Part shown: piece after piece, positions 27,081 to 63,599 of the stretch
Numbering within the stretch: position 1 is the first letter of the stretch
How the letters are laid out: the number at the start of each line of letters is the position of its first letter
Origin: Candidatus Euphemobacter frigidus
GTDB taxonomy: Bacteria > Auribacterota > Erginobacteria > Erginobacterales > Erginobacteraceae
Direction of reading: 5' to 3'
DNA: 64,000 bases
Assembly: GCA_030765805.1 (NCBI GenBank)
Contig: JAVCDH010000091.1
Span: 19,047-83,046 of the forward strand
Notes under the pieces: generated by a model
Databases searched by the model: none
What the model was told of the DNA's origin: nothing
The model's input: the letters and a program-made list of their open reading frames with translations, nothing else
Made by a program: the position numbers and the translations under genes

Positions 27081-27692
27081 TTACTGATCATCAATAACAT
27101 CTGGCGAACTGCCACCCGGGCCGGCTTTTAGTTCAGCTTTGCGGGCCAGGAGGTGCTTCACATAGACGGAAGTGTCGCCGCCCATCTTCAGCCGGGAGCG
27201 GGCCAGCTTCTTCTCGACTTCCTGGAGGGACATCAGGCGAATCTTCTTGTTCGGCGTGGCTTCCGGCTCCTCTTCCACCTCTTCTCCACCTTCCTCGGAC
27301 GGAGCAACTTCCTCTTCTCCTGCTGCCACGGCAGTTGTTTCTGCCGCTGGGGCTGCTTCTTCCTTCGCCGGAGCTGCTTCTTCCTTCGCCGGGGCCGCTT
27401 CTTCCTTCGCTGGGGCTGTTTCTTCCCCCGCCGGGGCCGTTTCTTCTTCCGCCGGGGCCGTTTCTTCTTCCGCCGGGGCCGCTTCTTCCTTCGCCGGGGC
27501 CGCTTCTTCTTCCGCCCGGGTTGCTTCTTCCTTCGCCGGGGCTTCTTCTTCCTTCGCCGGGGCTTCTTCTTCCTTCGCCGGGGCTTCTTCTTCCTTCGGG
27601 GCTGCTTCTTCAACTACTGGAGCTTCTTTATCAGTCGGCGTAGTTTGAGTTTGATCAGTGGTCTCTTCCATCTCTTTCTTTTCTTTGGTCAT
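27081..27692 (-). CDS. acidic Ala/Pro/Glu-rich repeat protein with conserved C-terminal domain
   Basis: GGAG SD 8 nt upstream of the ATG. About 14 tandem heptad repeats (EEAPAKE / EEAAPAK), then the C-terminal segment KKIRLMSLQEVEKKLARSRLKMGGDTSVYVKHLLARKAELKAG. The antisense frames (RRGRFF..., AGAASSF...) are rejected. Confidence 0.5.
   Translation of the reverse strand: MTKEKKEMEETTDQTQTTPTDKEAPVVEEAAPKEEEAPAKEEEAPAKEEEAPAKEEATRAEEEAAPAKEEAAPAEEETAPAEEETAPAGEETAPAKEEAAPAKEEAAPAKEEAAPAAETTAVAAGEEEVAPSEEGGEEVEEEPEATPNKKIRLMSLQEVEKKLARSRLKMGGDTSVYVKHLLARKAELKAGPGGSSPDVIDDQ
27290..27620. repeat. 21-bp tandem repeat array (coding, (EEAAPAK)n)
   Basis: Repeating unit ttcttccttcgccggggccgc and variants are directly visible. 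Confidence 0.85.
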
Positions 27693-27784: not shown

Positions 27785-29410
27785 TTAAAGTGAATTATTT
27801 CCACTGTGTTTGCGTGGTAACTTGAGGATGGTATCTCTGCGGAAGTGACGGTCGTCCTTTTCGGGATAATCAAGGCTGTAATGAAGCCCCCGGCTTTCTT
27901 TTCGCTTTGAGGCGGAGTAAATAATCAACTCGGCGACGGTGGCGATATTCCTCAGTTCAATCAAGTCGGCCGTGATAATGAAGTCCCAGTAGTACTGGTT
28001 AATTTCCTTCTTCAGGTTGCGGATCCGTCGCTTCGCCCGGGCCAGACGTTTGTCGGAGCGGACGATTCCCACGTAGTTCCACATCAGCCGCCGGATCTCG
28101 TCCCAGTTATGGGCCACCATGACCGCCTCGTGGGCGTCGACCGCGTGGCCGATCTTCCAGGAGGGAAGTTGGGGAATGGACAAGGGGGGGGGGCTCTCGG
28201 AACAGACCAGTTCCGCCGCCCGGTCGGCGAAGACCAGTGCTTCCAGTAGAGAGTTGCTCGCCAGGCGGTTCGCTCCGTGAAGTCCGGTGTGGGCGACCTC
28301 GCCGATCGCCAGGAGGCCCGGTATGGTGGTGCGGCCCCGGTCGTCGGTCTGTACTCCCCCGCAGGAGTAATGGGCGGCCGGGACGACCGGGATCGGAATC
28401 CTGGTCATATCAAAACCGAACTGCCGGCACTCCCGGTAGATGTGGGGGAAACGTTTCTTGATAAACGCGGCGGGCTGGTGGGTGATATCCAGCAGGACGT
28501 AATCATCTCCGCTCTTTTTCATCTCGGTGTCGATCGCCCGGGCGGTGATATCCCGGGGGGCCAGGCTCTTCATCCGGTGGTAACGGTGCATGAAAGGGCG
28601 CCCGGCGGCGGTCTTGAGAATGCCGCCCTCTCCCCGGACAGCTTCCGAGATCAAGAATGATTTTGCTTCCGGGTGAAAAAGGCAGGTGGGATGGAACTGC
28701 ATGAACTCCATATTGGCGATTCTCGCCCCCGCGCGGTAAGCCATGGCAACCCCATCGCCGGCGGTGGTATCCGGGTTGCTGGTATAGAGATAAACCTTGG
28801 CGGCCCCGCCGGTGGCGAGGATGGTGGTATGAGCCAGGAATGTCTTTACCCGCCCGCTCTTGCTGTCCAGGACATATGCGCCCCAGCATCTTATCTTCCG
28901 GTCGGAAGGATTGATAGTGGTAATGAGGTTGACCGCGATATGATTCTCGTAAACCTTGATCCGGCGGTCGCTTCGGACGGCGTTGACCAGACATTTTTCT
29001 ATCTCCGCGCCGGTCTGATCGGCGGCGTGGAGTACCCTCCGCCGGGAGTGCCCTCCCTCGCGGCCCAAATCGTACTCCTTTCGGTTCTGCCGGCTCTTAG
29101 TAAAGCTGACCCCCAGATCGATCAGTTCCCGGATCCGGTCCGGGGCGCTGTTGACCACCATCTCGACCACCTCCGGACGGCAAAGGCCGTCTCCGGTCCG
29201 CAGGGTATCCCGGATATGGTCCTGGAACGAATCTTCCCGGTCGGTAACCGCGGCGATACCGCCCTGAGCGTAACGGCTGCTGGATTCGGCGATATCCTGT
29301 TTGGTTACCAGCGCGATCGACCCGGCGCCGATCGCCTTCAGAGAGAAACTCAACCCGGCCAGTCCGCTCCCGATGACTAAAAAATCGGTTGTTATCCGGT
29401 CGGCTTTCAT
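27785..29410 (-). CDS. nadB: L-aspartate oxidase (FAD-dependent; succinate dehydrogenase/fumarate reductase flavoprotein superfamily)
   Basis: FAD-binding [16 protein letters not shown]...[10 protein letters not shown], and [24 protein letters not shown]. Length and C-terminal region fit NadB better than SdhA/FrdA. ATG at 29410 (the tool start at 29413 is a TTG). Confidence 0.75.
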
Positions 29411-29420
29411 CAATAGAGTC

Positions 29421-30263
29421 TCACAACACCGCGGTCTTGTGACGGGTCACCGGGCAGTCGAGGTTGATCGCGACCGGGAGACTGGCAATATGGCAGGGAG
29501 AGGTAAGGATATGGCAGTCGAGACAGGTGGCTCTCCCACCCAGGCCCCCGGGACCGATCCCGGTTTGATTGAGCCGGTCGATGATAGCCACTTCCATTTC
29601 GGCGTAGAACGGATCGGGGTTGCGGGAGCCGATGGGGAGGAGGAGCGATTTCTTGGCCCGGAGGGGCGCTTCCTCGAAATTTCCGCCCAGTCCGACGCCG
29701 ACAATAACCGGGGGACATGAGTTGGCTCCGGCTCCTTCCACCCATTCGACCACGAATTCCGTTATCTCCTCCGGTTCGGTGCCCGGGATCATCATCCTGA
29801 TCGTGGACATGTTCTCACTTCCGGCTCCTTTGGCGGCGACGGTTATCTTCAACCGGTCTCCGGGAACGATCTCGGTATGGACCAGGGGCGGGGTATTATC
29901 TCCGGTATTCTCCCGCCGCAATGGATCGGCCACGATTGAGGCGCGGAGGAAGCCCTCTCGGCATCCTTGCCGGATACCTTCATCAATAGCCTTTTGCAGG
30001 TCCCCCCCCGTGATATGGAGGTCCTGACCCAACTCCAGGAAGACGATGGCGACACCGGTATCCTGGCAGACCGGGACAGATTCAGCCCGGGCGGTTTTCG
30101 CGTTTTCTAAGAGTCGGCCGAGAATATCACGCCCGGTAACCGATTCTTCGTTGGATAGAGCCTCCTCAAGGGAGATGAGAAGATCGTCGTTCAGGACGTA
30201 ACTGGCTTCCAGATAGAGCTCTTTGACGGTCCGGGTTATCTCGCCTGTTTTTATCTCTCGCAT
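29421..30263 (-). CDS. class I (Fe-S) fumarate hydratase alpha subunit
   Basis: 280 aa. [33 protein letters not shown] (Cys ligands), typical FumA N-terminal domain. Confidence 0.85.
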
Positions 30264-30291: not shown

Positions 30292-31626
30292 TTATAAATC
30301 GGGCTCTTGAATAAATCCCTCACGCACCAGCATCTCGGCTTCGGCGCGCGCCCGCTTGATTATTGTTTCGGCGGTTCGATAGAGGTCTTCCCGGGTGAAC
30401 TTCTTCAGAGCTACTCCCTCCTCGATCGCCCGCATACCGACCGCGGTCGCGATTCTGGGGTAGACCTCCCACTCCTCCATGGTGGGGATGAGGTGTTCCT
30501 CGCTCAGGCCCAGTTCTCTCGCGCAACGAGCCAGTTCGAGTGAAGCGGCGATGCACATCCCATCGGAGATCCCGGATGCCCTCACGTCGAGCGCTCCCCG
30601 GAATATTCCCGGAAAACCCAGGGAGTTGTTTATCTGGTTGGGAAAGTCGCTTCTTCCGGTCGCCACGATCCGCGCTCCCGCCTCTTTGGCCTCCCAGGGC
30701 CATATTTCCGGGACAGGGTTGGCGCAGGCGAAACAGATTGCGTTATGATTCATCCGGGAGATCCATTCTTTTCTTATTGTGTTCGGCCCGGGCCGGGAGA
30801 GGGCGATCATAACGTCAGCCCCCTCCATCGCTTCCGGAATCCCGCCGCTTACTCCCGCCCGGTTTGTTGTTTCGCACATCTCCCATTTGAGCCGGTGGGT
30901 TTTTCTCAGTTCGGCCCGTCCTTTGTGGAGCGTGCCTTTGCTGTCGCAGATGATGATATTGTCAGGGTTAGCCCCAAAGGCGATTATCAGCCGGGCGACC
31001 GAGAGGTTAGCCGCCCCGGCCCCGACCAGGGCTATCTTCACGAGTCCGATCTTCTTGCCCACGATCTCGAGGGCGTTGATCAGCCCGGCCAGGGTGACGG
31101 CCGCGGTTCCCTGCTGGTCATCGTGCCAGACCGGGATGCGGCACTCCCGCCGGAGGCGATCAAGGATGGTGAAACACTTGGGCTGGGCGATATCTTCCAG
31201 GTTGATTCCACCGAAAGATGGCTGGAGGATCTCGACGGTTCTGATCAGTTCTTCCGGATCATCCGTATCCAGGCAGATTGGGAAGGCATCGACGCCCCCC
31301 AGGTATTTAAAGAGAAGAGCCTTGCCTTCCATGGTGGGCAAAGCTGCCTCCGGGCCAATATTTCCCAGCCCGAGAACCCGTGATCCGTCGGAGACCACGG
31401 CGACCGTGTTCCATTTGTTGGTGTAGTCGTAGACCAGGGCGGGGTTTTGATGGATCTCGGAAGAGACGGCGGCGACCCCCGGAGTGTACCAGATCGCGAA
31501 ATCATCCGGAGAACTGACCCGGCATTTGGGAACGATCTCGATCTTCCCCCGGTAGAAAGGATGGAGTCTCAGAGCGTCCCGGCCGGGCTGATCAGCCTTC
31601 TCTAAAAGTTCTTCTTTGGTAGGCAT
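30292..31626 (-). CDS. maeB: NAD(P)-dependent malic enzyme (oxaloacetate-decarboxylating malate dehydrogenase)
   Basis: ATG at 31626 (MPTKEEL...). LRLHPFYRGKIEIVPKC...AIWYTPGVA...VVSDGSRVLGLGNIGPEAALPTMEGKALLFK...KIALVGAGAA. Confidence 0.9.
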   Translation of the reverse strand: MPTKEELLEKADQPGRDALRLHPFYRGKIEIVPKCRVSSPDDFAIWYTPGVAAVSSEIHQNPALVYDYTNKWNTVAVVSDGSRVLGLGNIGPEAALPTMEGKALLFKYLGGVDAFPICLDTDDPEELIRTVEILQPSFGGINLEDIAQPKCFTILDRLRRECRIPVWHDDQQGTAAVTLAGLINALEIVGKKIGLVKIALVGAGAANLSVARLIIAFGANPDNIIICDSKGTLHKGRAELRKTHRLKWEMCETTNRAGVSGGIPEAMEGADVMIALSRPGPNTIRKEWISRMNHNAICFACANPVPEIWPWEAKEAGARIVATGRSDFPNQINNSLGFPGIFRGALDVRASGISDGMCIAASLELARCARELGLSEEHLIPTMEEWEVYPRIATAVGMRAIEEGVALKKFTREDLYRTAETIIKRARAEAEMLVREGFIQEPDL

Positions 31627-31658: not shown

Positions 31659-31724
31659 CAGTCACCAGTCACTATTCACCAGTCACTATTCACCAGTCCC
31701 CAGTCCCCAGTCACCAGTCACCAT
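31659..31724. repeat. heptamer array (CAGTCAC / CAGTCCC / TATTCAC units; same family as 7156-7311, reverse orientation)
   Basis: cagtcaccagtcactattcaccagtcactattcaccagtccccagtccccagtcaccagtcacca. The last unit contains the TGA stop (31718-31720) of the downstream dehydrogenase gene. Confidence 0.85.
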
Positions 31725-32914
31725 CTCCGCCACTTCTCTTCCAGCTCGGAATCGATCAGGGTCTCCAATAGATAATCGGTGATCTCCCGGGTGGTGGCGC
31801 CTCCCGGTCTTCCGGTGACCGTCAGTCTCTTCTCGTACTGGCCGCAGATATCCAGGGCCATCTCGAGCTTCTTGGCCCGGTCGGGATATCCTATCTGGGC
31901 CAGGAGCATCGCGGCCGCCCGGATCATGCTGAAGGGGTCCGCGAACCGTTCCCGCCCCTCTTTCACCATCCGGGGGGCGCTGCCGTGGATGGCTTCGAAC
32001 ATCGCGGAGCGTCGTCCGATATTGGCGCTCCCGGCGGTGCCGACCCCCCCCTGGATCTGGGCGGCTTCATCGGTGAGGATATCTCCATAAAGATTAGGGA
32101 GAACGAAGACCTGGAACCCGGCCCTCCGGTTGGGGTCGAGGAGTTTCGCGGTCATAATATCGATGTACCAGTCATCGGCCTCGATCTCCGGGTACTCGGC
32201 GGCGATTCGGAAGAAGGTGTCGAGGAAGAGGCCGTCCGTGGTCTTGATCACGTTAGCCTTGGAGACGGCGGTGATCCGTTGCCGGCGGTTTTTCCGGGCG
32301 TATTCAAAAGCCAGCCTGATGATCCGCTCGGATCCGGGACCGGTTATTACCTTAAAATCAAGAGCCAGGTCATCCGTTACTAGGAAGCCGTCGCTGCCCA
32401 GCATGTAGGCGCCTTCGGTATTCTCCCGGAAGAAGGTCCAGTCGATCCCGAGTTCAGGGACCCGGACCGGACGGACGTTGGCGAAGAGATCGAGTTCTTT
32501 GCGTAGGGCGACATTGGCACTTTCAATGTTGGGCTCGGGGTCGCCCTTACGGGGGGTGGTAGTAGGTCCTTTTAAAAGGACCGGGCATCTCTTTATCTCC
32601 TCCCGGACCTGATCCGGAATGGCCTGATGGACCGCGGCTCGGTTCTCGATGGTCAACCCTTCAATGAAACGGAACCGGACCGCGCCCTTCTCGAGTTCCG
32701 GTTTCAGAATCGTCTCCAGTACTCTCTGTGCCTCCCGGGTGATGACCGGGCCGATCCCATCCCCCCCGATAATCCCGATCCGGAGCGGTCGAAGACCACG
32801 GTAATCGATCCATTCGGGTGCTTCTTTCAGCCTCTCCACTCGACCGAGTTGCGCCTCCAGGATGCGCTCGAACCGCTTCCGGGCTTCTTTAACCGCTGCC
32901 CGGTCAATCTTCAT
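31718..32914 (-). CDS. isocitrate / 3-isopropylmalate / homoisocitrate dehydrogenase-family enzyme (NAD(P)-dependent beta-decarboxylating dehydrogenase)
   Basis: ATG at 32914 (MKIDRAAV...). IGIIGGDGIGPVITREA, NLYGDILTDEAAQIQGGVGTAGSANIG, AMFEAIHGSAPRMV. The start overlaps the upstream synthase gene by 11 nt. Confidence 0.8.
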   Translation of the reverse strand: MKIDRAAVKEARKRFERILEAQLGRVERLKEAPEWIDYRGLRPLRIGIIGGDGIGPVITREAQRVLETILKPELEKGAVRFRFIEGLTIENRAAVHQAIPDQVREEIKRCPVLLKGPTTTPRKGDPEPNIESANVALRKELDLFANVRPVRVPELGIDWTFFRENTEGAYMLGSDGFLVTDDLALDFKVITGPGSERIIRLAFEYARKNRRQRITAVSKANVIKTTDGLFLDTFFRIAAEYPEIEADDWYIDIMTAKLLDPNRRAGFQVFVLPNLYGDILTDEAAQIQGGVGTAGSANIGRRSAMFEAIHGSAPRMVKEGRERFADPFSMIRAAAMLLAQIGYPDRAKKLEMALDICGQYEKRLTVTGRPGGATTREITDYLLETLIDSELEEKWRRW

Positions 32915-34745
32915 GCGGATGCTGCTCCTCTTCCAGTTTGGCGGCGTCTTCAAAGCGGAAATCCGCCCCCAGGACGCCGGCAATCTCCTCCTGATCATCA
33001 CGGATCGGGGCGGAGACGGTTATGCAGAGTACCCCGTCGAAGCGGGAGATATAGAAGTCGGTCACGTAGGGAGAACCGTCCTTCATTGGATTGACGAACC
33101 AGTTCCGATCGGAGAAGTCCTGATGGAGGTCAAATTCTTTATCATACTTGGCCCGGTCGTAGGGATGAACCACATTCCGGGTTATTTTTATCCCCTTAAT
33201 ATCGGTAATGTAGAGGTATTTGATAAAAGGATCTTTCACGATGTATTCTTCCAGAACCGGCTCCATGCGTCCGGGAACCATGGAGCGGATCTCCGGGTTT
33301 TTGACCATTGCCTTCACCAGATCAATTGCGATCGCGGCCACCCGATCCTTGATCCGATCGAACTCGGACTTGAAGAGATGGGGAAGATGCTTCGTAACCT
33401 GTACCATCATCTCGGCCGAGGATATAGCTGTCGATCGTCCATCCCGGTATTGCTCGTTCACCCAGTGCCGGAGGTTGACCACACCGGGATGGTTCTTGTT
33501 GAGCTTCGCGGTCTCCAGGTCGGTCTGAGTCTGGATCCAGTAGATGATCCCCGCGATACCGGATTTATCGGTAACCGCGATCGAGGGGGGCCGGTTGAGA
33601 AGGGCCCCGGTATCGAAGATATTATAGATCTCCTCGTTTTTGATCGCCCCGTCGGCATGGATCCCGGCCCGGGTAATATTGAAATCGCGCCCCACCAGCG
33701 GCATATTGTAGGGGACCTTGAAGAGGATCTCCTTTTTAAAGTAATCCGCCAGTTTGGTAATTACCGAGAGATCCATCCCGTTGGCGCTCCCGGTGAGTTC
33801 GGCGTAGGTGATGCAGGCTATCTCGATCGGGGTATTGCCGGTCCGTTCCCCCAAACCGAGGACGGTGGCATTCAGGGCCGAACAGCCGAAGAGCCAGGCC
33901 GCGACCGCGTTGGGTGTGGCCAGGTAAAAATCATTATGCCCATGCCACTCCAGCCACTCTTTGGGGACACCGGCTTCCCGGGTCATCACCCGGACCAGCT
34001 TGGGGACGCTGCGGGGCAGGGCGGCCTGGGCCCAGGGGACTCCGTAGCCCATCGTGTCGCAGAGCCGGATCTTGATCGGGGTCTTCGCTTCTCGGGCCAG
34101 CTCCATTAGCTCCTGGGCGAAGGGGACGATAAAGCCGTAGATATCGGCCCGGGTGACGTCCTCCAGGTGACAGCGGGGTATAATTCCACTGGAGAGGGCG
34201 CCCTTCACCAGAGCCAGATATTTTTCAGCCGCTTTCTCCCGGGTTGACTTGAGTTTGAGGAAGATGTGATAATCGGAAGCGGATGTCAGGATCCCGGTCT
34301 CTTTCAGTCCCATCTCCTTTACCAGTTGAAAATCCTTCTTTACCGCCCGGATCCACCCGGTTACTTCAGGATACCGGTAACCCCGTTCCAGGCATTTTCG
34401 GACCGCTTCTCTGTCTTTATCGGAATAGAGAAAAAACTCACACTGACGGATTACTCCGTTGGGTCCCCCCAGCTTGTGGAGGAGATCATAGATATCCACA
34501 ATCTCGTCGACGCTATAAGGAGGACGAGCTTGCTGGCCGTCCCGGAAGGTGGTGCAGGTGATCGTCAACTCATCCGGGGGATCGACCGGAATGGCGACCC
34601 CATCGAAGGCGATCCGGGGGACCTCGCTATAGGAGAAGAGGTCCCGGAAGAGATTTGGCTTCTCGATCTTTGTGATCTTCAGCTTCTTTCCGGTCGGTTC
34701 TCTCCAGATGTTATCGGAGGGATAAGTTAATGAAAATTTGTTCAT
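32904..34745 (-). CDS. HMGL-like (DRE-TIM) 2-isopropylmalate / homocitrate / Re-citrate synthase-family enzyme with unusual C-terminal Cache/PAS-like domain
   Basis: ATG at 34745 (MNKFSLTY...). Catalytic motifs TTFRDGQQ, HGHND, FNITRAGIHADGAIKNEEIY. The C-terminal ~200 aa carries a Cache-like signature: FVNPMKDGSPYVTDFYISRFDGVLCITVSAPIRDDQEEIAGVLGADF. Confidence 0.75.
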   Translation of the reverse strand: MNKFSLTYPSDNIWREPTGKKLKITKIEKPNLFRDLFSYSEVPRIAFDGVAIPVDPPDELTITCTTFRDGQQARPPYSVDEIVDIYDLLHKLGGPNGVIRQCEFFLYSDKDREAVRKCLERGYRYPEVTGWIRAVKKDFQLVKEMGLKETGILTSASDYHIFLKLKSTREKAAEKYLALVKGALSSGIIPRCHLEDVTRADIYGFIVPFAQELMELAREAKTPIKIRLCDTMGYGVPWAQAALPRSVPKLVRVMTREAGVPKEWLEWHGHNDFYLATPNAVAAWLFGCSALNATVLGLGERTGNTPIEIACITYAELTGSANGMDLSVITKLADYFKKEILFKVPYNMPLVGRDFNITRAGIHADGAIKNEEIYNIFDTGALLNRPPSIAVTDKSGIAGIIYWIQTQTDLETAKLNKNHPGVVNLRHWVNEQYRDGRSTAISSAEMMVQVTKHLPHLFKSEFDRIKDRVAAIAIDLVKAMVKNPEIRSMVPGRMEPVLEEYIVKDPFIKYLYITDIKGIKITRNVVHPYDRAKYDKEFDLHQDFSDRNWFVNPMKDGSPYVTDFYISRFDGVLCITVSAPIRDDQEEIAGVLGADFRFEDAAKLEEEQHPHED

Positions 34746-34793
34746 CTTTTGTAGGTTATAGTGAAATGACAGGAAAAGAAAAGAAAAAAATGA

Positions 34794-34909
34794 GGATGGG
34801 GAATGGGGAATAGGGAATGGGGAATAGGGAATGGGGAATAGGAATGGAGAATGGGGAATAGATAACGAGGTTTCCCCCCATTCCCTACTCCCTATTCCCC
34901 ATTCCCCAA
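34794..34909. repeat. palindromic heptamer array (GGGAATG / GGGAATA units and their reverse complement CCCTATT / CCCCATT)
   Basis: Left arm 34794-34860, 14-nt loop, right arm 34875-34909. The right arm encodes the last codons (LGNGE) and the TAG stop of the TPR lipoprotein gene. Confidence 0.85.
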
Positions 34910-37920: not shown

Positions 37921-38020
37921 AAACTATTGAATAGGCAACATCGTATAGAAATTAGGTGAACCACTCCCCATTCCCTAATCCCTATTCCCCAAATTAGCCC
38001 CGCCAGGGTCGGGCTAATTT
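37921..38020. repeat. ~100-nt dispersed element, copy B (inverted relative to copy A at 21468-21570)
   Basis: aaactattgaataggcaacat...ccactccccattccctaatccctattcccc aaattagccccgccagggtcgggctaa. The reverse complement aligns along its length with 21468-21570 (shared atgttgcctattcaatagttt, GGGATTAGG repeats, ccctggcgggg hairpin). Confidence 0.8.
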
Positions 38021-38560: not shown

Positions 38561-40057
38561 CTAGAAATTAATATCTTCCGGGCGGTAGTTCAACTCATCC
38601 TTGAGGCGCAGCTCGTCGTCATAATGGAGGATCGGGCGGCGGATAGCCAGGACATCGTCGGTCCGGCGGATTCTGGTCCGATGGGGGGCATCCCGCAGCA
38701 ATTCCGGATTGCTCCGGGCCTCTTCCGAGATCTTGATCATCACCGCGATAAAATCATCGAGGACCTCTTTCCCCTCTGACTCGCAGGGCTCGACCATCAT
38801 CGTTTCTTCAGCGTACGGCTTAAAATGAGGGAAGTAGATGGTGGGAGGATAGTAGCCATAGTCCATCAGCCGCTTGGCGATATCCATGGTCTTTACCCCC
38901 AGCTTTTTGTAGTCGCGACCGGTCAGGACGCATTCATGGGCGCAGAACCGGTCATAGGAGGGGCGATAATAATCCTTCAACTTTACCAGAACGTAGTTGG
39001 CGTTGATGACACTCGCCTCCGATACCTCGCGCAATCCCTTCCCCCCCAGGGAGAGAATCCAGGCATAAGCTTTAATCAGGACGGAAAAGTTGCTCCAGAA
39101 GGCCCTCATCATCCCGATGCTCTTCTCTCCCGGATCACGGAGCCGGTAGTTCTCCCCGTTGAAGACGACTACCGGGGAAGGAAGATAAGGCGAGAGAAAC
39201 TTCTTCACCCCGACCGGACCGGCGCCGGGGCCTCCTCCGCCGTGGGGCGTCGCGAATGTCTTATGGAGGTTGAGATGAACTATGTCAAAGCCGGTATCCC
39301 CCGGCCGGAGTATCCCCAGGGTGGCGTTGAGATTTGCTCCGTCATAATAGAGGAGGCCGCCTTTACCATGCACGATCTTAGCTATCTCGTCGATCCGGCC
39401 ATCGAACAGCCCCACTGTATTGGGATTGGTAAGCATCATCCCGGCGGTGTCTTCGTCCATCAACCGTTCCAGTTCCCCGATATCGACGGTTCCCGATTTA
39501 TTTGATTTCAGCTCAACCACCTTGAACCCGGCCATCGCGGAAGAGGCGGGGTTGGTCCCGTGAGCGGAGTCCGGTACCAGCATCTTGCTCCTCTGTTCTC
39601 CCCGGTCCTCAAAATACTTCCGGATAATCAAGATCCCCGCCAGCTCCCCATGAGCTCCGGCGGCGGGGGCCAGGGTGTAGGCATCCATCCCGGTGATCCG
39701 GCAGAGTAGTACACTTAAGTCGTGCATCAACTTCAGACACCCCTGAACGGTATCCGCGGGAGCAAAGGGATGGGCGTTGGCAAAATTACCCAGCCCGGCC
39801 AGGTGCTCGTTCACCTTGGGGTTATACTTCATGGTGCAGGAGCCCAGCGGATAGAGGCCGTCCTCGATCCCGTAGTTGAACTTGGAAAGCTGGGTGAAAT
39901 GACGGACCACATCGACCTCCGAGGCCTCGATGAGGTCCTTTTTTCGGCCTCGCGCGTAAGGAGGGATGCAGTCCTCCACCCGAATCTCCTCGATCCGGTC
40001 CGCGGGCAGGGAGTACCCCACTCTTCCTTTTATACTCTTCTCAAATATTAACTTCAT
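38561..40057 (-). CDS. gcvPB: glycine dehydrogenase (decarboxylating) subunit 2 (P-protein C-terminal half)
   Basis: 498 aa, PLP-lysine region LHKTFATPHGGGGPG, and family motifs CTMKYNPK, DSAHGTNPASSAMAG. Confidence 0.9.
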   Translation of the reverse strand: MKLIFEKSIKGRVGYSLPADRIEEIRVEDCIPPYARGRKKDLIEASEVDVVRHFTQLSKFNYGIEDGLYPLGSCTMKYNPKVNEHLAGLGNFANAHPFAPADTVQGCLKLMHDLSVLLCRITGMDAYTLAPAAGAHGELAGILIIRKYFEDRGEQRSKMLVPDSAHGTNPASSAMAGFKVVELKSNKSGTVDIGELERLMDEDTAGMMLTNPNTVGLFDGRIDEIAKIVHGKGGLLYYDGANLNATLGILRPGDTGFDIVHLNLHKTFATPHGGGGPGAGPVGVKKFLSPYLPSPVVVFNGENYRLRDPGEKSIGMMRAFWSNFSVLIKAYAWILSLGGKGLREVSEASVINANYVLVKLKDYYRPSYDRFCAHECVLTGRDYKKLGVKTMDIAKRLMDYGYYPPTIYFPHFKPYAEETMMVEPCESEGKEVLDDFIAVMIKISEEARSNPELLRDAPHRTRIRRTDDVLAIRRPILHYDDELRLKDELNYRPEDINF

Positions 40058-40096
40058 CTTCTCTCCCTAACTACTACAGCTAAATATAACCGCGGA

Positions 40097-41440
40097 TTAT
40101 GTGGATAAGAGTTGGGTGACGCGATTGAGTTTTTCCCGGCTGAAGATCTCGGTCACGCAAAAAAGCGCGGTGTTCTCCAATGATTCGTCTCCAATAAATG
40201 CGCCCAGGGCCAGGGGGGGGAGGAAGCCGGCTTCAAGTAAGCTCGCCCTGATCCCGGGGAGCGGTTTTTTGCTTCTAAGCAGGAATTCATTAAAGAAAGG
40301 ATAGTCGAAGACCCGTTCAAACCCGCCTGAGGCGACCAGCCGTTCCTCCAGGTAATGAGCGGCCCGGGTATTGAGGAGGGCGGTCTGATAGAATCCTTCG
40401 GTCCCCAGGAGGGAGAGGTAGATATCGGAGGCGATGATATTAAGACCGTGGTTGGAGCAGATGCAGGAGGTCGCCTTCTCTCTCCGGATATCCTGCTCCC
40501 GGGCCCGGGATGTCATCACGAAAACACGCTTGCCGTCCCGGTCCACCGTCTCTCCCGCAATCCGGCCGGGGAGCTGCCGGAGATACTTCTTCCGGGCTCC
40601 GAGGTATCCGTTATAAGGGCCCCCGAAGCTGAGTTCCATTCCCAACGACTGAGCCTCCCCGGCCACGATATCGACGTCCATTTCACCGGGCGTCTTCAAC
40701 AACCCCAGGGAGATACTCTCCGCCACCACCTGGATAAACAACGCGGAGCGGGCATGAGCGAGCCCGGCTAATTCCGCGATCTTCTCGATCCCGCCGAAAA
40801 AATTCGGGCTCTGAACGATCACCGCCGCCGTATCATCAGTTAGTACTTTTTCCAATCTCGGTCCGGCGACCAGCCCATCCTGATAGGGCAGTTCGATTAT
40901 CTCCGTCCCATGGGGAGCGGTATAGGTCTCGACAACCGATCGGTAATGAGGATGGAGGGTAGAGGAGATGATGATCCTGTTCTTCCTGGTCAGGCGGAGA
41001 GACATCAAGGCTGCCTCCGCGGTGGCCGAGGCGCCGTCATACACCGAGGGGATGACGACCTCCATCCCGGTTAACCGGGCGAGGTAGGTCTGCAGCTCAA
41101 ACATCGCCTGGAGGGTGCCCTGGCTGAGTTCCGGTTGATAGGGGGTGTAGGAAGTGTAGAACTCTTCCCTCCCCAGCAGGGCCTGGATTGCCCGGGGGAG
41201 ATGGTGTTTATAGGCGCCGGCTCCAATCAGCGGTTTCAGGGAAGTGAAGTCGGCGTTTCGTTTGGCCAAGTCAGCGAACTCCTCCTCCAGCTCCGCCTCC
41301 GAGAGGGGTCCCGGGATATCCAACTCCCCTCTGAATCTCATCTCCTCGGGTATAGTCCCGATCAACTCTTCAAAAGATGAGACCCCGATCTCCTTCAGCA
41401 TCTCCCGCTTCTGCTGATCGGTATTGGCGATATAGCGCAT
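40097..41440 (-). CDS. gcvPA: glycine dehydrogenase (decarboxylating) subunit 1 (P-protein N-terminal half)
   Basis: MRYIANTDQQKREMLKEIG..., YTPYQPELSQGTLQAMFE. ATG at 41440 preferred over the tool start. Confidence 0.9.
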   Translation of the reverse strand: MRYIANTDQQKREMLKEIGVSSFEELIGTIPEEMRFRGELDIPGPLSEAELEEEFADLAKRNADFTSLKPLIGAGAYKHHLPRAIQALLGREEFYTSYTPYQPELSQGTLQAMFELQTYLARLTGMEVVIPSVYDGASATAEAALMSLRLTRKNRIIISSTLHPHYRSVVETYTAPHGTEIIELPYQDGLVAGPRLEKVLTDDTAAVIVQSPNFFGGIEKIAELAGLAHARSALFIQVVAESISLGLLKTPGEMDVDIVAGEAQSLGMELSFGGPYNGYLGARKKYLRQLPGRIAGETVDRDGKRVFVMTSRAREQDIRREKATSCICSNHGLNIIASDIYLSLLGTEGFYQTALLNTRAAHYLEERLVASGGFERVFDYPFFNEFLLRSKKPLPGIRASLLEAGFLPPLALGAFIGDESLENTALFCVTEIFSREKLNRVTQLLST

Positions 41441-41470
41441 GTAAATCAATCTCCGACCGCTCAATTTAGG

Positions 41471-42217: not shown

Positions 42218-43684
42218 TTATTGGTATTTCTTCAGAAGTCCGGTCTTATCATTGAAATCCTTGATTAATTCATCCCATTCTTCGTAGGCATGGAACTGCT
42301 TAGACCAGTAATCGTCGTCATACCACTGGGCGTTCAGTTCTTCCAGTTCCTTTCCCTGCTGCTCGATCCAGGTAAAATACTTGAGATTATGCATCCGTTT
42401 CTTATCCCAGTAAGTGAGTTCCTTCATCCAGTCGATGGTCTGGGCCATCAATGATCTTTCAAAATCCAGGATCGCTTTCATTTCAGTGTAGTCACCGTAC
42501 TCTTCCTGTTCTTCCACCAGACGCGATCCATACATATCCATCGAGTCGGTAGCCACGGTCATGATAATGGAATCGTCATTCATCTCGTAGTACTTCGCCA
42601 TCTTGATGCAGCCCAGAAGATTGGCAACCGATGATATCCCCAGCAGATTGAGCCGGTTCACCACCTCCGGGTCGATCCCTTTCTTCTTTAGATACGCCAG
42701 GCCGGCCGGCTCGTTAAAGAGACGGATCAGATCCATGCAGTCCTGATCATCGATATCGATCACCATATCCATGGTCTTGATGTTATGGATCCAGGGGACA
42801 TGCTTATCTCCGATTCCTTCGATCCGGTGACCGCCGTATCCATTGTAAAGCAAGGTCGGGCACTGGAGAGCTTCCGCGGCCCCCACCTTGATCTCAGGAA
42901 ATTTCTCTTTCAGGTACTCCGCGCTGCCCAGTGTACCGGCGGACCCCTGGGTGAGACAGAGGGCGCGCAATTTTTCTTTCCCTCTCCTCTTCGCGTGGTA
43001 GACCTCTTCCATCGCCCGGCCGGTGCAGACATAGTGCCAGATGGCGTTGCCGATCTGATCGAACTGGTTCAGAACCACGATCTCATCCGGCCGCTTCATC
43101 TTCAGTTCCTTGGTCTTATCGTAGACCTCCTTCACATTGCTCTCGCAGCCCGGGGTGGCAAAGATCTCGCATCCAACCTTCTTCAGCCAGTCAAACCGCT
43201 CCCGGGACATCCCCTCCGGAAGGACCGCGATTGAAGGACAGGCCAGGAGATACGCGTCATAGGCGCCCCCCCGGCAGTAATTCCCGGTTGAGGGCCAGAG
43301 AGCCTTCTGGCAGGTAGGATCGAACTCGCCCCGGACCAGTTTTTCGACCAGCGGGCCGAAGGTGGCCCCTACCTTGTGGGCTCCGGTGGGAAAGTACTTC
43401 CCGACCAACATTAATATTCGGGCCCGTACCCCGGTCAGTTCCCGGGGGATCTCCAGATAATTGACCTTCCCGAAACCACCGCCGACCTGCACCGGTTCAT
43501 TTTTCCAGGTGATCCGGAACATATTGCGGGGACTCAGGTCCCAGAGGCCGATACTTTTTAGTTCGTCTTTGATCCCGGCGGGGATCTTCCCGGGATCGGC
43601 CATCTGTTCATAAGTGGGGATGATGATATCCCTTTCCCGGCATCTTTTAATAGTGTTCTCGAGAACTTTTTCCTTATCTTTCAA
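42218..43684 (-). CDS. PLP-dependent fold-type II enzyme, TrpB-like (tryptophan-synthase-beta-related) with ~130-aa C-terminal extension; function unknown
   Basis: TTG start with strong aaggagg SD 9 nt upstream. PLP-lysine motif FPTGAHKVGATFGPL (TrpB-type GAHK), Gly-rich loop LTQGSAGTLGSAEY, 488 aa. Confidence 0.6.
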   Translation of the reverse strand: MKDKEKVLENTIKRCRERDIIIPTYEQMADPGKIPAGIKDELKSIGLWDLSPRNMFRITWKNEPVQVGGGFGKVNYLEIPRELTGVRARILMLVGKYFPTGAHKVGATFGPLVEKLVRGEFDPTCQKALWPSTGNYCRGGAYDAYLLACPSIAVLPEGMSRERFDWLKKVGCEIFATPGCESNVKEVYDKTKELKMKRPDEIVVLNQFDQIGNAIWHYVCTGRAMEEVYHAKRRGKEKLRALCLTQGSAGTLGSAEYLKEKFPEIKVGAAEALQCPTLLYNGYGGHRIEGIGDKHVPWIHNIKTMDMVIDIDDQDCMDLIRLFNEPAGLAYLKKKGIDPEVVNRLNLLGISSVANLLGCIKMAKYYEMNDDSIIMTVATDSMDMYGSRLVEEQEEYGDYTEMKAILDFERSLMAQTIDWMKELTYWDKKRMHNLKYFTWIEQQGKELEELNAQWYDDDYWSKQFHAYEEWDELIKDFNDKTGLLKKYQ

Positions 43685-47757: not shown

Positions 47758-49449
47758 TTACTTACAAAATGACGGCAGTTCTTCCTTAGCTTTCAAAAAC
47801 ACAAATGAATCAATATATAAACTTCCTCCATGCGGATAAACATATTTAAACTTGACTGATTTAGGTCTGATCAAACCAGGAAACTGAAAACAAGAAAAAT
47901 AACGGCAAGCATTATAACTGTCCCCCTGATATTGTATAACCCGTTTATCAAATATCGAGGCCGCATGATGGTGCCGCTGCTCTTCCGGAACAACCTCCAG
48001 ATGTTGATCGGAAGTGTCTAAACCCGCCTTCAGGGAGAAGACGTACCTATCACCGGATACAGAATCTACCTGAATTTCGGCTACTGATTCTCCCTGGAAA
48101 AAGGAAAGCCCATAACGAGTATAGGAAACAATTCCCAAACCCGAGGCTATAATGGAATCCTCCACATCTATTGTTAACTCGGCGTTCCCGGCCAGGACAA
48201 ACTGTTTATTTATGGCTAAAATATTTTCTCCGAAAATAGTGGTTAACCGATCACTTTGAGTAAATCCTTCTCTTACCCGAGACTTGATTTGGATTGATTG
48301 AATATTTAACCAACAATCCTTGGAACCGATGATTCTCAAAAGCCGATTGTCAGATCTCGAAAAAGCTACCTGGAGATTGTACTTGGTGGGATGCATATCC
48401 CAGGGCAGATCGCGGCAAATTTTCAATTTAACCACTTCGCCCAGGCCTACCTGATCCGGCAAGTTTATTTCTTCCATGATGCTATGGCCGGAGGAAGAAA
48501 TCAATCTTATCATTGCTTTAATCTGGTTGTCTTGAGTAGTGGACCTGGTTGAATATAGCGTAACCCTGAATTGACTATCTTCCGTCCAATTGTTTCTGAC
48601 AAGATCATACCCTCGCAATGATATTTCATTGCTGAAATTGACCGAAGTTTTATACCGCGGGATCAAAGCTCCGGCCTTAACCCGGGCCTGATTTGCTCTG
48701 GATATAGCACCTTTTTGAAGGTATATTCTTTCCAGAGCTTGCCAGCCTCCCAGATGAACCGGTGATTCTTCCACCAGTTTCTCGTAATATGCCTGGGCCC
48801 GCACCAGTTCCCCCAATTTTTCACAGGCCCGGGCTAAATAAAACCGGGTATCTAATCGCGGAGAGTTGTTTTGCAGTGCCTTTTGCAACCGGGATTCAGC
48901 CTCATTATACTTCCCCAGTTGATAGAGGGCTCTCCCCCACCAATAATAGGCCTGGTCCGGGTTTTTTCCTTCCCTCGCTAAATCCTCCGCGATTACAGCT
49001 ACTTTTGACCATTCGTTCCAGTTCTGAAAATATTGAAGCAACTCCTGGCCCAATCTCTGATCACAGCCCGATTTCAGATATGCATTGAATAAAACACGGC
49101 TTACTTGACTTCTGAAACCCAATTTTTCGAGCTCTTTCCCAACTCGAAACAAGTCCCCGGGATCCAGATTAAACCATACCCGGTAATAATTGGGTCGATG
49201 CCAGGCAGCCAGAGCTAATTCATGCTGAGAGGCTTCCAGTTGATCATTTTGCTCTAAATAAACTGATTTGGTGTAATGCCAACCAAATCCGAAATAATCA
49301 TAGATAAACTCAAAAGGATGGGGTAAACCGGTCCTTAGTAACGGTGGTTGGTATGTCAAATAACTGATAAGAAGAATTGCTCCTAGGGCGACAATCAACA
49401 GGAAAAAAATATATCTTCTCCTACCCAGCTTTTTTTCCCGTGATTTCAT
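47758..49449 (-). CDS. membrane-anchored TPR-like protein (hypothetical), first gene of the low-GC island
   Basis: Probable start MKSREKKLG... (ATG near 49449) with an N-terminal TM anchor. TPR-like stretch AYYWWGRALYQLGKYNEAESRLQKAL...FYLARACEKLGELVRAQAYYEKL. Beta-rich C-terminal half. Confidence 0.45.
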   Translation of the reverse strand: MKSREKKLGRRRYIFFLLIVALGAILLISYLTYQPPLLRTGLPHPFEFIYDYFGFGWHYTKSVYLEQNDQLEASQHELALAAWHRPNYYRVWFNLDPGDLFRVGKELEKLGFRSQVSRVLFNAYLKSGCDQRLGQELLQYFQNWNEWSKVAVIAEDLAREGKNPDQAYYWWGRALYQLGKYNEAESRLQKALQNNSPRLDTRFYLARACEKLGELVRAQAYYEKLVEESPVHLGGWQALERIYLQKGAISRANQARVKAGALIPRYKTSVNFSNEISLRGYDLVRNNWTEDSQFRVTLYSTRSTTQDNQIKAMIRLISSSGHSIMEEINLPDQVGLGEVVKLKICRDLPWDMHPTKYNLQVAFSRSDNRLLRIIGSKDCWLNIQSIQIKSRVREGFTQSDRLTTIFGENILAINKQFVLAGNAELTIDVEDSIIASGLGIVSYTRYGLSFFQGESVAEIQVDSVSGDRYVFSLKAGLDTSDQHLEVVPEEQRHHHAASIFDKRVIQYQGDSYNACRYFSCFQFPGLIRPKSVKFKYVYPHGGSLYIDSFVFLKAKEELPSFCK

Positions 49450-50470
49450 ATCGCCCTTCAGAACATATATTGCAAATAGAAATACTTCTCCTGTTTTTTC
49501 TGATTTGTTTCCTGAACATTTGATACTTATTATTTTTCCATATAGAACCCAAGTTCTCTTCAAACACATTGCCCATAATATAACGGGAATAAAGGTCGTA
49601 GCAGCAGGGAATGACACTCCCATCTGAATTGATTACTGTCCGCTGATATACCCATTTGCAATAGTTCTTGATTTTTCCTTTGAGAGTATAGGTTCCATCC
49701 GGCTTCAACCGGTAACGACTCAAGGATAAATCAGTTGGCAAAAATTTTTCCGCCTGTTTCTGAAATTCAGGATCATTGGCATCGATACCCGCTGTTTTTT
49801 CGGAGTATATATCTATCCCTAATTGGTGGGATAAATTTTTTATATGACTTCGCTGATGCTCATTCTGTTTCATTATTATAAACTGCAACTCAAGAACCGG
49901 GGTTTTTGTCTTTAATTTCCGCTTAGCTGCAACTATCAATTGTATGCCCTTGATAATCTTCTCAAAATTGCTATTCTTCCTGTAAATGCTTAATGTCTCT
50001 TGATCAGCCCCATCCAGACAAATAATCAAGTGATGAAGTCCACTCTTAACAACCCTGATTGCGAAATCTGAAGAATCAAAGAACTCACCGTTGGTGCTGG
50101 TTACTACATATATCCCAGAAGAAGTGGCGTATTTTATCATTCTCAGACACTCGGGGTTGATAAAAGGTTCCCCATAATTCCAGAGTACAATATTTTCAAT
50201 GTATTTACGGGATTGATCAACTATATGTTTAAACTCCTGAAATTTCAATAAACGGGGAGGACGGTTAAGTTTGCCCGCTCCGGTTGGACAGGTGGGACAT
50301 TGCAAATTGCAAATATTGGCGGGCTCTATCATTAAAGATATGGGAAACGGAGGAAGAAGATGCTTGAATCCCGCTATTCTCAATAACTGATATAATACCA
50401 CCATAATCTTACCTTGCTTGATCTGGCTCAAGGCTCTTTTAAATAATAATAATTTGATCCTTTTAGACAT
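49421..50470 (-). CDS. radical SAM enzyme with C-terminal SPASM/twitch-like Cys cluster
   Basis: CxxxCxxC = CNLQCPTCP near the N-terminus. C-terminal CCYDLY...CNICSEG. ATG at 50470 or 50494. Confidence 0.8.
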   Translation of the reverse strand: MSKRIKLLLFKRALSQIKQGKIMVVLYQLLRIAGFKHLLPPFPISLMIEPANICNLQCPTCPTGAGKLNRPPRLLKFQEFKHIVDQSRKYIENIVLWNYGEPFINPECLRMIKYATSSGIYVVTSTNGEFFDSSDFAIRVVKSGLHHLIICLDGADQETLSIYRKNSNFEKIIKGIQLIVAAKRKLKTKTPVLELQFIIMKQNEHQRSHIKNLSHQLGIDIYSEKTAGIDANDPEFQKQAEKFLPTDLSLSRYRLKPDGTYTLKGKIKNYCKWVYQRTVINSDGSVIPCCYDLYSRYIMGNVFEENLGSIWKNNKYQMFRKQIRKNRRSISICNICSEGRYEITGKKAG

Positions 50471-51551
50471 TTTTAAATAGCCTTTCGTAGGCATCAGTTA
50501 CCTTATCCCAGGTATAATATTTCGCGATTCTTTCCTTGGCTTTTTCTCCATATTCTTTAACTATAGAAGGGTTATCAATAAGATATTGCAACTTTGTTTT
50601 CAGGTCATTTTTATCTTTTAACCGGAACAGCATGCAAGCAGAACCGGCAGTCTCCCGGTTCTGCGGATTATCGCTGACCAACACGCATTTCCCATAGCCC
50701 ATTGCCTCCAATAATGCTGGATGAGTTCCTCCTACCTCACTGGCGCGAACACTGAAATAGCAGTCGTCAAGAAGCTGGCGGTAATCTTCCCCATAGATAG
50801 CCCCTAAGAACAAAATCCGATTATCCTGGATCTCTTTCAATTTATCTATATACTTTTTCCCATACGGCGCATCCCCAAGAAAAACTAGTTTAAGATCGGT
50901 TTTCAAATTGATAAATGCTTTCTGAACCAGGTGCGCGTTATTTTCCGGTTCCAGGCGTCCAACAAAAAGTATATATCGATTTTTTTCCAGCTTGTATTTG
51001 TTTACTTTACCATCCCGGACCACTTCTCCCAGATCGCCTCCGTAAGCGATGTATGTTGATGCTTTGTTGTACCGGTCTCGGTAATACTTCTGAATGAATA
51101 AAGAATCGGAAACAATAGCATCAGGTAAAAAAGTGACCAACCATTCCGATATCATATATACCAATTTGCCCAGTCGATTCCATTTTTTTCGCTGCCTCTC
51201 CAGACCATCCACGTTTATAATCACTTTCTGTCCTCGTAATCTGGGAATAAAACTGCACAAAGCATTTACTCCATTACAAATTAAAACAATCTGATAATCA
51301 TGAAACAGACAATGAAATATTGAAATAAATGTATGAACGACCGTATCCAGATATTTATGCTTGATCGTAGGAAGAACTATTAACCGAACTCCCTTATATT
51401 CCTTGAGACGGCTGGAGATATAATGAGAACGGCAATAAACAGTGACCTGATGCCCCCGATCTACCAGCCGAACAGCCAGCTGTTCGGCGAAAGTTTCAAA
51501 TCCCCCATAATTAGACGGGATTCCTCTAGTTCCCAGAATTGCTATTTTCAT
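50463..51551 (-). CDS. glycosyltransferase family 4 (DUF1972-type N-terminus)
   Basis: MKIAILGTRGIPSNYGGFETFAEQLAVRLVDRGHQVTVYCRS; C-terminal LEAMGYGKCVLVSD. Confidence 0.8.
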   Translation of the reverse strand: MKIAILGTRGIPSNYGGFETFAEQLAVRLVDRGHQVTVYCRSHYISSRLKEYKGVRLIVLPTIKHKYLDTVVHTFISIFHCLFHDYQIVLICNGVNALCSFIPRLRGQKVIINVDGLERQRKKWNRLGKLVYMISEWLVTFLPDAIVSDSLFIQKYYRDRYNKASTYIAYGGDLGEVVRDGKVNKYKLEKNRYILFVGRLEPENNAHLVQKAFINLKTDLKLVFLGDAPYGKKYIDKLKEIQDNRILFLGAIYGEDYRQLLDDCYFSVRASEVGGTHPALLEAMGYGKCVLVSDNPQNRETAGSACMLFRLKDKNDLKTKLQYLIDNPSIVKEYGEKAKERIAKYYTWDKVTDAYERLFKNV

Positions 51552-52764: not shown

Positions 52765-52784
52765 AATAAAACTATCCTTTATCC

Positions 52785-54230: not shown

Positions 54231-54916
54231 AGAAAAATAAACTGATAGCAATAGTATAATGGCAAAAAATGATCGATCAAGTTAAGCCCTATGGCCTTAG
54301 CCGTTTGTACGGGAGAAAGAGATAAAAACTTTCTTTCTTTTCCTTTATTAAACCAATTTTCCGAGTGAATCGCAGTAATCACCAGGCCTTCTTTTCTCAG
54401 GAGTTGTTTCCATTCCTCAAGAGAAAGCAGATGTTCATTGATTTCCTGTTGTTCAGTCCCGGAGAATCTTCTTAACTTAAAATATAAGAAGTTTCGATTG
54501 GGAACCATAATAAAGAAAAGAGCATCCTGTGCGGCCACGCGCTTTATATCCTGGAGACTTTTTTCCATATTGAGAAAATGTTCCAGCGTGCCGAGACAAA
54601 AAATATAATCGAAGTAATTATCCTTAAAAGGAAGATTCTCCCCCTGGCTAACTAAAAATACTGTTTCTGGGGAAACCACCTGAGCGATCTTGATTGCTTC
54701 TAATGATATATCAATCCCAAAAGTTATAAGCTTTCTCTGAATCGAAGCTTTAGCCATATGCCCGGTGCCACAGCCGATATCCAAGAGTTTCTGGCCGGGC
54801 TTTACCGGTAAATAATTAAGAAAATGCGGATAAGTGTGGTAAGGACGAAAAAGATCTTCTCCTGAGGTACGGTACTTATGATTATACCAATCTTTAATTT
54901 GTTTCACTGTTGTCAT
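54215..54916 (-). CDS. class I SAM-dependent methyltransferase
   Basis: Motif I LLDIGCGTGHMA; 233 aa. Confidence 0.8.
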   Translation of the reverse strand: MTTVKQIKDWYNHKYRTSGEDLFRPYHTYPHFLNYLPVKPGQKLLDIGCGTGHMAKASIQRKLITFGIDISLEAIKIAQVVSPETVFLVSQGENLPFKDNYFDYIFCLGTLEHFLNMEKSLQDIKRVAAQDALFFIMVPNRNFLYFKLRRFSGTEQQEINEHLLSLEEWKQLLRKEGLVITAIHSENWFNKGKERKFLSLSPVQTAKAIGLNLIDHFLPLYYCYQFIFLCRQC

Positions 54917-55004
54917 AATAAGAAGATTGCATTAACAACAAATTTAAGCTGTAATAATCTCATCCTCTACAAGCATTTTCATATATTAAATCGAGAATAC
55001 TAAT

Positions 55005-56564: not shown

Positions 56565-56674
56565 CCTTTAATAATTTGTCTTCCCAAAAAATTTGACAAA
56601 TTATAAGCATTGTACTATTATTACCCGTTGATTATGATTAATTAAAATAATGTCGCATCAAGGTGAGTAAAATT

Positions 56675-58799: not shown

Positions 58800-58958
58800 G
58801 ATAATATTATATAGCTTCTTCTTGCCTACTTGTATCACAAAATATTAAAAAATTTGTATTGATTTTTAAAATAAACAATTCTACATTGCAAATAGAGCTA
58901 ATTTTATACTTCTTTCAAGATCTATTCTAAACAGGCCTAATCCCTTAAATAAACCCTT

Positions 58959-63548: not shown

Positions 63549-63599
63549 TATACGAATTTAATTCAAACTAAAGTTGAATAGTAAATAGTAGAATTGTTT

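Follow-up and report, generated by a model that had tools for sequence, protein, structure and literature searches.

We analysed a 64,000-nucleotide stretch of the genome of Candidatus (Ca.) Euphemobacter frigidus (assembly GCA_030765805.1, contig JAVCDH010000091.1, positions 19,047 to 83,046 of the forward strand), referred to here as the window, with a focus on the gene at 32904..34745 (minus strand). Judged from its sequence, the product of this gene is a long-form Re-citrate synthase (EC 2.3.3.3), in which a catalytic barrel and a helical linker are followed by a C-terminal tail with the fold of a Cache sensor domain. The enzyme and its annotation in this species were already known; what is new is the reading of the tail as an amino-acid sensor. 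We see roughly an even chance that the protein is a cytoplasmic Re-citrate synthase whose Cache tail serves as an allosteric sensor of an amino acid, with glutamate and aspartate as the candidate ligands.

Identification of the Re-citrate synthase

The open reading frame (ORF) at 32904..34745, stop codon included, encodes a protein of 613 amino acids (69.6 kDa) that starts with MNKFSL, at a site matching the start of its homologues, and the exact protein is deposited at NCBI for Ca. Euphemobacter frigidus as the "hypothetical protein" MDP8214233.1. Residues 61-334 (33744..34565, minus strand) form an HMGL-like/DRE-TIM catalytic barrel (Pfam PF00682, E 6e-32), whose sequence matches in the Protein Data Bank (PDB) are the catalytic domains of LeuA, homocitrate synthase and citramalate synthase. 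The catalytic signatures TTFRDGQQ (R68, D69) and HGHND (H268, H270) are intact and invariant across 68 homologues, in agreement with the first-pass annotation, which had proposed from the letters of the window a catalytic domain of the LeuA/homocitrate/Re-citrate synthase family. The barrel is followed by a helical linker or accessory region (residues 335-460; 33366..33743, minus strand), delimited on the secondary structure of the AlphaFold model, shared with short-form enzymes and including the conserved residues K417, G421, R437 and T439. The full-length model has a mean predicted local distance difference test (pLDDT) of 83, reaching ~88-95 in the last 150 residues; used as a Foldseek query, it returned TIM barrel matches only (homocitrate synthase, LeuA, citramalate synthase and HMG-CoA lyase), the tail remaining silent.

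Within this superfamily, the assignment to Re-citrate synthase is based on several lines of evidence. The protein is 52% identical to SYN_02536 from Syntrophus aciditrophicus over residues 2-606, the whole tail included, and 51% identical to CKL_0973 from Clostridium kluyveri over residues 30-464, where CKL_0973 ends, both values being slight underestimates because the two reference sequences were taken from optical character recognition text in which a few letters were dropped. These sequences originate from Table S1 of PMC12016533 (Layton et al. 2025), where both are termed known, isolated Re-citrate synthases. In a neighbour-joining tree of the catalytic region, the protein falls inside the long-form Re-citrate synthase clade together with SYN_02536. 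Finally, Williams et al. (2022) reported that Ca. Euphemobacter frigidus, a species of Ca. Auribacterota known as a metagenome-assembled genome (MAG) from Ace Lake, encodes citrate (Re)-synthase, the only type of citrate synthase reported for it, and that its horseshoe tricarboxylic acid (TCA) cycle runs as far as 2-oxoglutarate and serves biosynthesis only. We therefore assign the gene to Re-citrate synthase, given its identity to two purified enzymes, the sub-cut-off NCBIfam scores detailed below and the published annotation.

It is extremely unlikely that the enzyme instead makes homocitrate, citramalate or isopropylmalate and works together with a homoisocitrate or isopropylmalate dehydrogenase. 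Such an identity could draw on the NCBIfam results, where the best matches are the models for nifV homocitrate synthase and LeuA, and on the adjoining dehydrogenase, which scores with homoisocitrate and isopropylmalate dehydrogenase models too. However, the LeuA, NifV and CimA models all stay far under their curated cut-offs (for instance 149 against 463), and the identity to solved structures of LeuA, homocitrate synthase and citramalate synthase is only 15-26% in Foldseek alignments, against 51-52% to the verified Re-citrate synthases. The neighbouring genes belong to the TCA cycle and to C4-acid metabolism, with no leu, lys or nif genes among them, and among solved structures the dehydrogenase is matched best by NAD-dependent isocitrate dehydrogenases (6lky, 2.8e-57). 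Identity, curated cut-offs and gene context thus led us to discard these synthases. The first-pass annotation had hesitated between a citrate and a homocitrate-type route; its Re-citrate option stands, supported by the sequence identities and by the gene family already reported for this MAG species, and the homocitrate-type option falls. Its term "(R)-citrate" is incorrect, since citrate has no chirality; Re denotes which face of oxaloacetate undergoes attack.

A single cytoplasmic Cache-type module at the C-terminus

Residues 461-603 (32937..33365, minus strand) constitute a single cytoplasmic PDC/Cache-like module according to Pfam, structure prediction, Foldseek and profile matches. The Pfam family MCP-like_PDC_1 (PF22673) matches residues 495-600 with 47.5 bits against a cut-off of 27, while dCache_1 (PF02743) matches residues 475-599 with 44.3 bits, marginally under its cut-off of 45. 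The region aligned to dCache_1 spans profile positions 31-153 of 240, and the tail, with ~150 residues in one module, lacks the double-module layout, membrane-distal plus membrane-proximal, of that family. A model of the tail alone (residues 440-613, 174 amino acids) reached a mean pLDDT of 88 and a predicted template modelling (TM) score of 0.79; two long helices (22-41 and 52-65 of the model) precede a sheet with inserted helices, in keeping with the PDC fold, where a long N-terminal helix leads into an alpha/beta sandwich around a central sheet. The top Foldseek matches of this model in the PDB are all PDC/Cache sensors with a probability of 1.00, namely KinD (E 1e-8), WalK, Tlp3, DcuS, CitA and YkuI, with DctB also among the matches, and TM-scores normalised by query length of ~0.44-0.60. 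A profile built from the tail recovered a similar set by sequence alone: Tlp3 (4e-8), KinD (8e-6), PctA (2.8e-4) and YkuI (4e-4).

The Cache-type fold proposed in the first-pass annotation is hence confirmed by the above-cut-off Pfam match, the tail model and Foldseek. The same annotation had named a C-terminal match to the canonical LeuA dimerisation/regulatory domain as the result that would speak against it; no LeuA_dimer match was found by Pfam in the synthase at E-values up to 0.1, nor is a LeuA regulatory domain present in the top 50 Foldseek matches listed for the tail, and LeuA_dimer was discarded as the fold of the tail on both counts. What did not survive is the idea that the tail replaces a LeuA_dimer domain: the nearest tail-less relatives, from C. 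kluyveri and anammox bacteria, just stop after the linker.

Neither a signal peptide nor a convincing transmembrane segment was detected in the synthase, the top 19-residue hydropathy window (1.64) lying inside the TIM barrel. These features, together with acetyl-CoA as a substrate, indicate a cytoplasmic protein, as previously suggested. The tail thus lacks the typical, albeit non-universal, setting of Cache domains, which is extracytoplasmic and between two membrane helices. According to Upadhyay et al. (2016), Cache domains are mainly extracellular and nearly all joined to signalling outputs, with YkuI_C and Diacid_rec as intracellular exceptions, so that the attachment of a Cache module to a metabolic enzyme is not typical of the superfamily.

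A putative amino-acid pocket in the tail

The putative ligand pocket maps to 32961..33107 (minus strand), a stretch whose translation was checked and which reads R547-x-W549-F550 ... Y565-x-S567 ... LCITVSAP ... D595. Its counterpart in amino-acid receptors is the AA motif of dCache_1 domains described by Gumerov et al. (2022; PMC8915833), in which the carboxylate of the ligand is held by Y121, R126 and W128 and its amino group by Y144 and D173, the two halves of the motif being 13-17 residues apart. In the same work, the R126A variant of PctA bound amino acids 61-fold more weakly, and D173A or D173N abolished binding. A hidden Markov model alignment of the tail to PctA pairs R547 with R126, W549 with W128, F550 with Y129, Y565 with Y144 and D595 with D173. 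Four of the five residues of the motif are therefore kept, and the spacing from W to Y, 15 residues, lies inside the described range. Among 68 close homologues, R547, W549, Y565 and D595 are invariant; in a set of 67 diverse long forms, W549, F550 and D595 are found in all 67, R547 in 63 and Y565 in 56.

A search with the tail against 1.84 billion cluster representatives gave only 377 matches. Synthase fragments aside, the nearest relatives among the Pfam-checked matches are chemoreceptors that carry the PDC domain at their extreme C-terminus, after the MCPsignal domain, a placement that makes these PDC domains cytoplasmic. The chemoreceptor tails (P0165, P0168, P0169, P0172, P0178, P0188, P0193) keep the pattern R-x-W-F ... 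Y-x-S ... CITVS-P ... D. Taken together, these sequence relationships point to a small family of putative intracellular PDC sensors, one branch of which would be fused to Re-citrate synthase.

Distribution of long and short forms

A scan of species-representative genomes with two catalytic peptide patterns recovered at least 592 related loci; the locus-level counts of tails and of gene contexts given in this text refer to the best 80 of these. The match includes the tail in 72 of the 80 and is restricted to the catalytic part (up to approximately residue 460) in the other 8. The tailed loci come from Syntrophales, Syntrophobacterales, Syntrophorhabdus, Desulfovibrio, Bilophila, Mailhella and Nitrospirota, as well as from Omnitrophota, Armatimonadota, Elusimicrobia, Lentisphaerae, Spirochaetales and Termititenax, while the short forms belong to anammox Planctomycetes, Firestonebacteria and one member of Omnitrophota. 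Among up to 8000 candidates listed from the protein database, the best 120 matches all have ~600 amino acids and precomputed HMGL-like, MCP-like_PDC_1 and dCache_1 domains. The fusion of barrel and Cache module, presented as unusual in the first-pass annotation, is thus a common and standard architecture of Re-citrate synthases across many anaerobic phyla, and one shared by the characterised SYN_02536.

The neighbour-joining tree of the catalytic region groups the short forms and the C. kluyveri enzyme in one clade beside the long forms, with one exception from Omnitrophota. This exception (locus L053, from a Ca. Omnitrophota MAG; match at 8001-9350) is a short form with a 501-residue ORF that adjoins the window protein among the long forms. 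Since it is nested in the long-form clade, a secondary and recent loss of its tail is suggested, although an assembly or frameshift artefact may also account for it.

No NCBIfam model reaches its cut-off for the Re-citrate synthase family, and members are deposited under names as diverse as "histone-lysine N-methyltransferase", "triose-phosphate isomerase", "EAL-associated domain-containing protein", "cache domain-containing protein" and "hypothetical protein" (P0034, P0041, P0042, P0047, P0063, P0075). Such misleading names hide the citrate synthase from metabolic reconstructions of anaerobes.

Proposed role of the tail and alternative explanations

In the mechanism that we propose, the synthase would condense acetyl-CoA and oxaloacetate in its metal-dependent DRE-TIM barrel. 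Its gene opens a same-strand cluster, with isocitrate dehydrogenase coupled to it and malic enzyme, fumarase and L-aspartate oxidase coming next, and the cluster would feed the biosynthetic, 2-oxoglutarate-forming branch of the horseshoe TCA cycle in this anaerobe of Ca. Auribacterota. The tail would bind a small molecule bearing both a carboxylate and an amino group, i.e. an amino acid, and binding would alter catalysis allosterically through the conserved helical linker; functionally, the tail would be the analogue of the domain that binds leucine in LeuA and of the RAM domain that binds lysine in the Sulfolobus homocitrate synthase. Glutamate would be a candidate as the end product of the pathway, and aspartate as the transamination partner of oxaloacetate; the latter is put forward because of this tie to oxaloacetate, the presence of NadB in the cluster and the proximity of the aspartyl-tRNA synthetase gene aspS to the synthase in other loci. 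Enzyme family, fold, architecture, conservation and gene context are shown here; what we infer is that the tail binds a ligand, which ligand this would be and in which direction it would regulate the enzyme. The conserved amino-acid-binding motif lends further weight to the ligand-sensing regulatory role voiced in the first-pass annotation, which is plausible. That the tail is a working cytoplasmic Cache amino-acid sensor on a central enzyme, with glutamate or aspartate held at R547, W549, Y565 and D595 and tuning carbon entry into the 2-oxoglutarate branch, we propose tentatively, at somewhat below even chances.

Several observations weigh against a sensing role. The Y121 of PctA is not kept: the aligned residue is Q542, five positions before R547, and mostly E in the other long forms, with F544 and Y534 as conserved aromatics nearby. 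In the set of 67 diverse long forms, Y565 is replaced in 11 and R547 in 4. At least one lineage within the long forms, the Omnitrophota exception described above, has no tail, and short-form enzymes such as that of C. kluyveri function without one. The retention of the motif could also partly reflect descent rather than function, since the aspartate is common across dCache_1 domains, where amino-acid sensing is considered ancestral.

Two other roles for the tail have to be considered. It could be a ligand-free structural or oligomerisation module that brings about a higher oligomer, PDC domains often pairing via long N-terminal helices. The activity of short forms without a tail and the strong conservation of the linker and of the first tail helix would agree with this explanation, and the S. 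aciditrophicus enzyme is reportedly a homotetramer of ~73-kDa subunits, specific for acetyl-CoA and oxaloacetate. Conservation nevertheless peaks at the positions that line the pocket in PctA, Tlp3 and KinD (R547, W549, F550, Y565, S567 and D595) and not on surface helices, and the pocket motif also occurs in the cytoplasmic chemoreceptor tails, where sensing is expected; we hence regard a purely structural role as unlikely. The alternative that the tail senses a carboxylic acid devoid of an amino group (2-oxoglutarate, citrate, pyruvate, oxaloacetate or malate), in the manner of CitA, DcuS, DctB and KinD, draws on structure: the pyruvate-binding KinD heads the structural matches, which also include CitA, DcuS and DctB, and R547 aligns with R131 of KinD, the residue changed in a deposited R131A mutant. 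TCA intermediates would be natural effectors of a citrate synthase, as established for the Si-type enzymes. What makes this alternative improbable in our eyes is the amino-group side of the pocket: D595 is invariant and Y565 conserved, both at PctA positions that hold the ligand amino group, whereas KinD, which has the arginine in common with the tail, has an alanine at the position of D595, and a pocket in which an acidic residue is always present would suit an all-anionic ligand poorly.

Genomic context

Immediately downstream of the synthase lies an isocitrate dehydrogenase-type gene (31718..32914, minus strand) encoding 398 amino acids (Pfam Iso_dh, E 3.7e-65). Its ATG (32914-32912) precedes the TGA of the synthase gene (32906-32904), so the 11-nucleotide overlap described in the first-pass annotation as translational coupling is exact in the sequence. 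The cluster continues on the same strand with a malic enzyme gene (30292..31626; 444 amino acids as called on the source contig; Pfam malic and Malic_M), the gene of an alpha-type subunit of class I (Fe-S) fumarate hydratase (29421..30263; Pfam Fumerase, E 1e-102; NCBIfam NF004885, 364 bits against 276) and, in last position, that of the L-aspartate oxidase NadB (27785..29410; NCBIfam NF006567, 753 bits against 629). The NF006567 match led us to read this flavoprotein of the Frd/Sdh type as L-aspartate oxidase and to reject fumarate reductase. The alpha-type fumarase gene is adjoined by nadB instead of the usual gene for a fumarase beta subunit. The next ORF after nadB, of 147 amino acids on the source contig or 203 as the longest ORF (27081-27692), has no Pfam or NCBIfam match and is a mere candidate for a divergent beta subunit.

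Between a TPR gene and the start of the synthase gene, a long hairpin of GGGGAAT/AGGGAAT heptamers followed by a U-run is found at 34789..34908 (minus strand). The inverted repeat spans 33 nucleotides with 91% complementarity, and the RNA folds into ~40 base pairs (-64.3 kcal/mol, z -6.6). The hairpin overlaps the 3' end of the upstream TPR ORF; it may terminate this gene and mark the start of the operon, or may be a genome-specific repeat element, a similar heptamer string occurring in another intergenic region ~3 kb away (37970-37990). Rfam returned generic long-hairpin matches to miRNA models, far under their gathering scores, and an Rfam identity was discarded.

We found no aconitase in those ORFs of the window that have at least ~620 amino acids, nor in the genes up to ~10 kb to either side of the synthase, a scan that leaves room for a split LeuC/LeuD-type enzyme on smaller and more distant ORFs. 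For the ORFs scanned, the first-pass annotation was thus right that no aconitase is present, but this lack is unremarkable: related loci place a LeuC-like gene for the aconitase large subunit directly after the synthase (7 of 80). An Iso_dh gene follows within ~2 kb downstream in about 20 of the 80 loci, malate dehydrogenase is found downstream in 5, and succinyl-CoA synthetase in 6, all of them short-form.

On the other side, an aspartyl-tRNA synthetase gene is located ~150 bp upstream of the long-form synthase on the same strand in 33 of the 80 loci, mostly from Deltaproteobacteria/Syntrophales or similar, and is itself preceded by a histidyl-tRNA synthetase gene in 26, giving a conserved order hisS-aspS-synthase.

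Elsewhere in the window, glycine cleavage genes (two-subunit P protein, with the H protein on the source contig) and a gene for a PALP-family enzyme lie upstream of the synthase on the same strand (38561-41464 and 42218-43684), and a gene for the tripartite tricarboxylate transporter component TctA is located at 208-1527. From 48000 to 64000, the G+C content falls from ~0.55 to 0.38-0.45 along a set of polysaccharide/O-antigen-type genes (Wzy-like ligase, Wzx-like flippase, glycosyltransferases, a sugar transferase and PMT_2); this region looks like a surface-glycan island of differing composition.

Implications

Many strict anaerobes, including sulfate reducers, syntrophs, gut Desulfovibrio and Bilophila, Nitrospirota and candidate phyla, use Re-citrate synthase to start the branch of the TCA cycle that provides them with 2-oxoglutarate and glutamate, and most Re-citrate synthases carry the conserved Cache-type tail with an amino-acid-binding signature. 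In the literature, we found no paper linking Re-citrate synthase to a Cache tail, nor any on the regulation of Re-citrate synthase. If the tail does sense an amino acid, it would be the first demonstrated case of a Cache domain that serves an enzyme, and not a signalling protein, as its allosteric module, and the third independent recruitment of an amino-acid-binding domain in the LeuA-type synthase family. In cytoplasmic chemoreceptors, the related C-terminal domains would in that case be sensors of this same amino acid inside the cell.

Comparison with known systems

The characterised enzyme most similar to the window protein, SYN_02536 of S. aciditrophicus, has the same succession of barrel, linker and Cache-like tail with R-x-W-F, Y-x-S and D. 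It differs by a short extra C-terminal extension and by its origin in Thermodesulfobacteriota rather than Ca. Auribacterota. Their neighbourhoods also diverge, many Desulfobacterota loci having aspS and hisS upstream, whereas a TCA/C4 cluster lies downstream here. CKL_0973 of C. kluyveri shares the barrel and linker (51% identity over residues 30-464) and, as predicted from sequence, the reaction; unlike the window protein, it is a short form that stops right after the linker and groups in a separate clade with the enzymes of anammox bacteria and Firestonebacteria.

At the level of the superfamily, LeuA/CimA and the homocitrate synthase of Sulfolobus resemble the window protein in their succession of barrel, helical linker and C-terminal domain. 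The LeuA_dimer domain of LeuA/CimA and the RAM domain of the Sulfolobus homocitrate synthase bind the end-product amino acid and mediate feedback inhibition; a deleted RAM domain is mentioned in the PDB title of 6ktq. These domains have a fold unrelated to that of the tail, which is a PDC/Cache module without any LeuA_dimer or RAM match.

Among sensors, the dCache_1AA proteins PctA, Tlp3 and Mlp24/37 (Gumerov et al. 2022, PMC8915833) share with the tail the PDC fold and the R, W, Y and D residues at the same spacing. In contrast to them, the tail is a single, cytoplasmic module without flanking membrane helices, does not keep Y121 and would have a metabolic enzyme as its output instead of a signalling domain. 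The closest parallels in organisation are YkuI_C and the C-terminal PDC domains of cytoplasmic chemoreceptors, which are likewise intracellular single PDC modules; YkuI is matched by both sequence and fold, and the chemoreceptor tails, the closest sequence relatives outside the synthases, have a motif of the LCITVSAP type in common with the tail. Both differ from it in being joined to signalling domains, EAL and MCPsignal, respectively.

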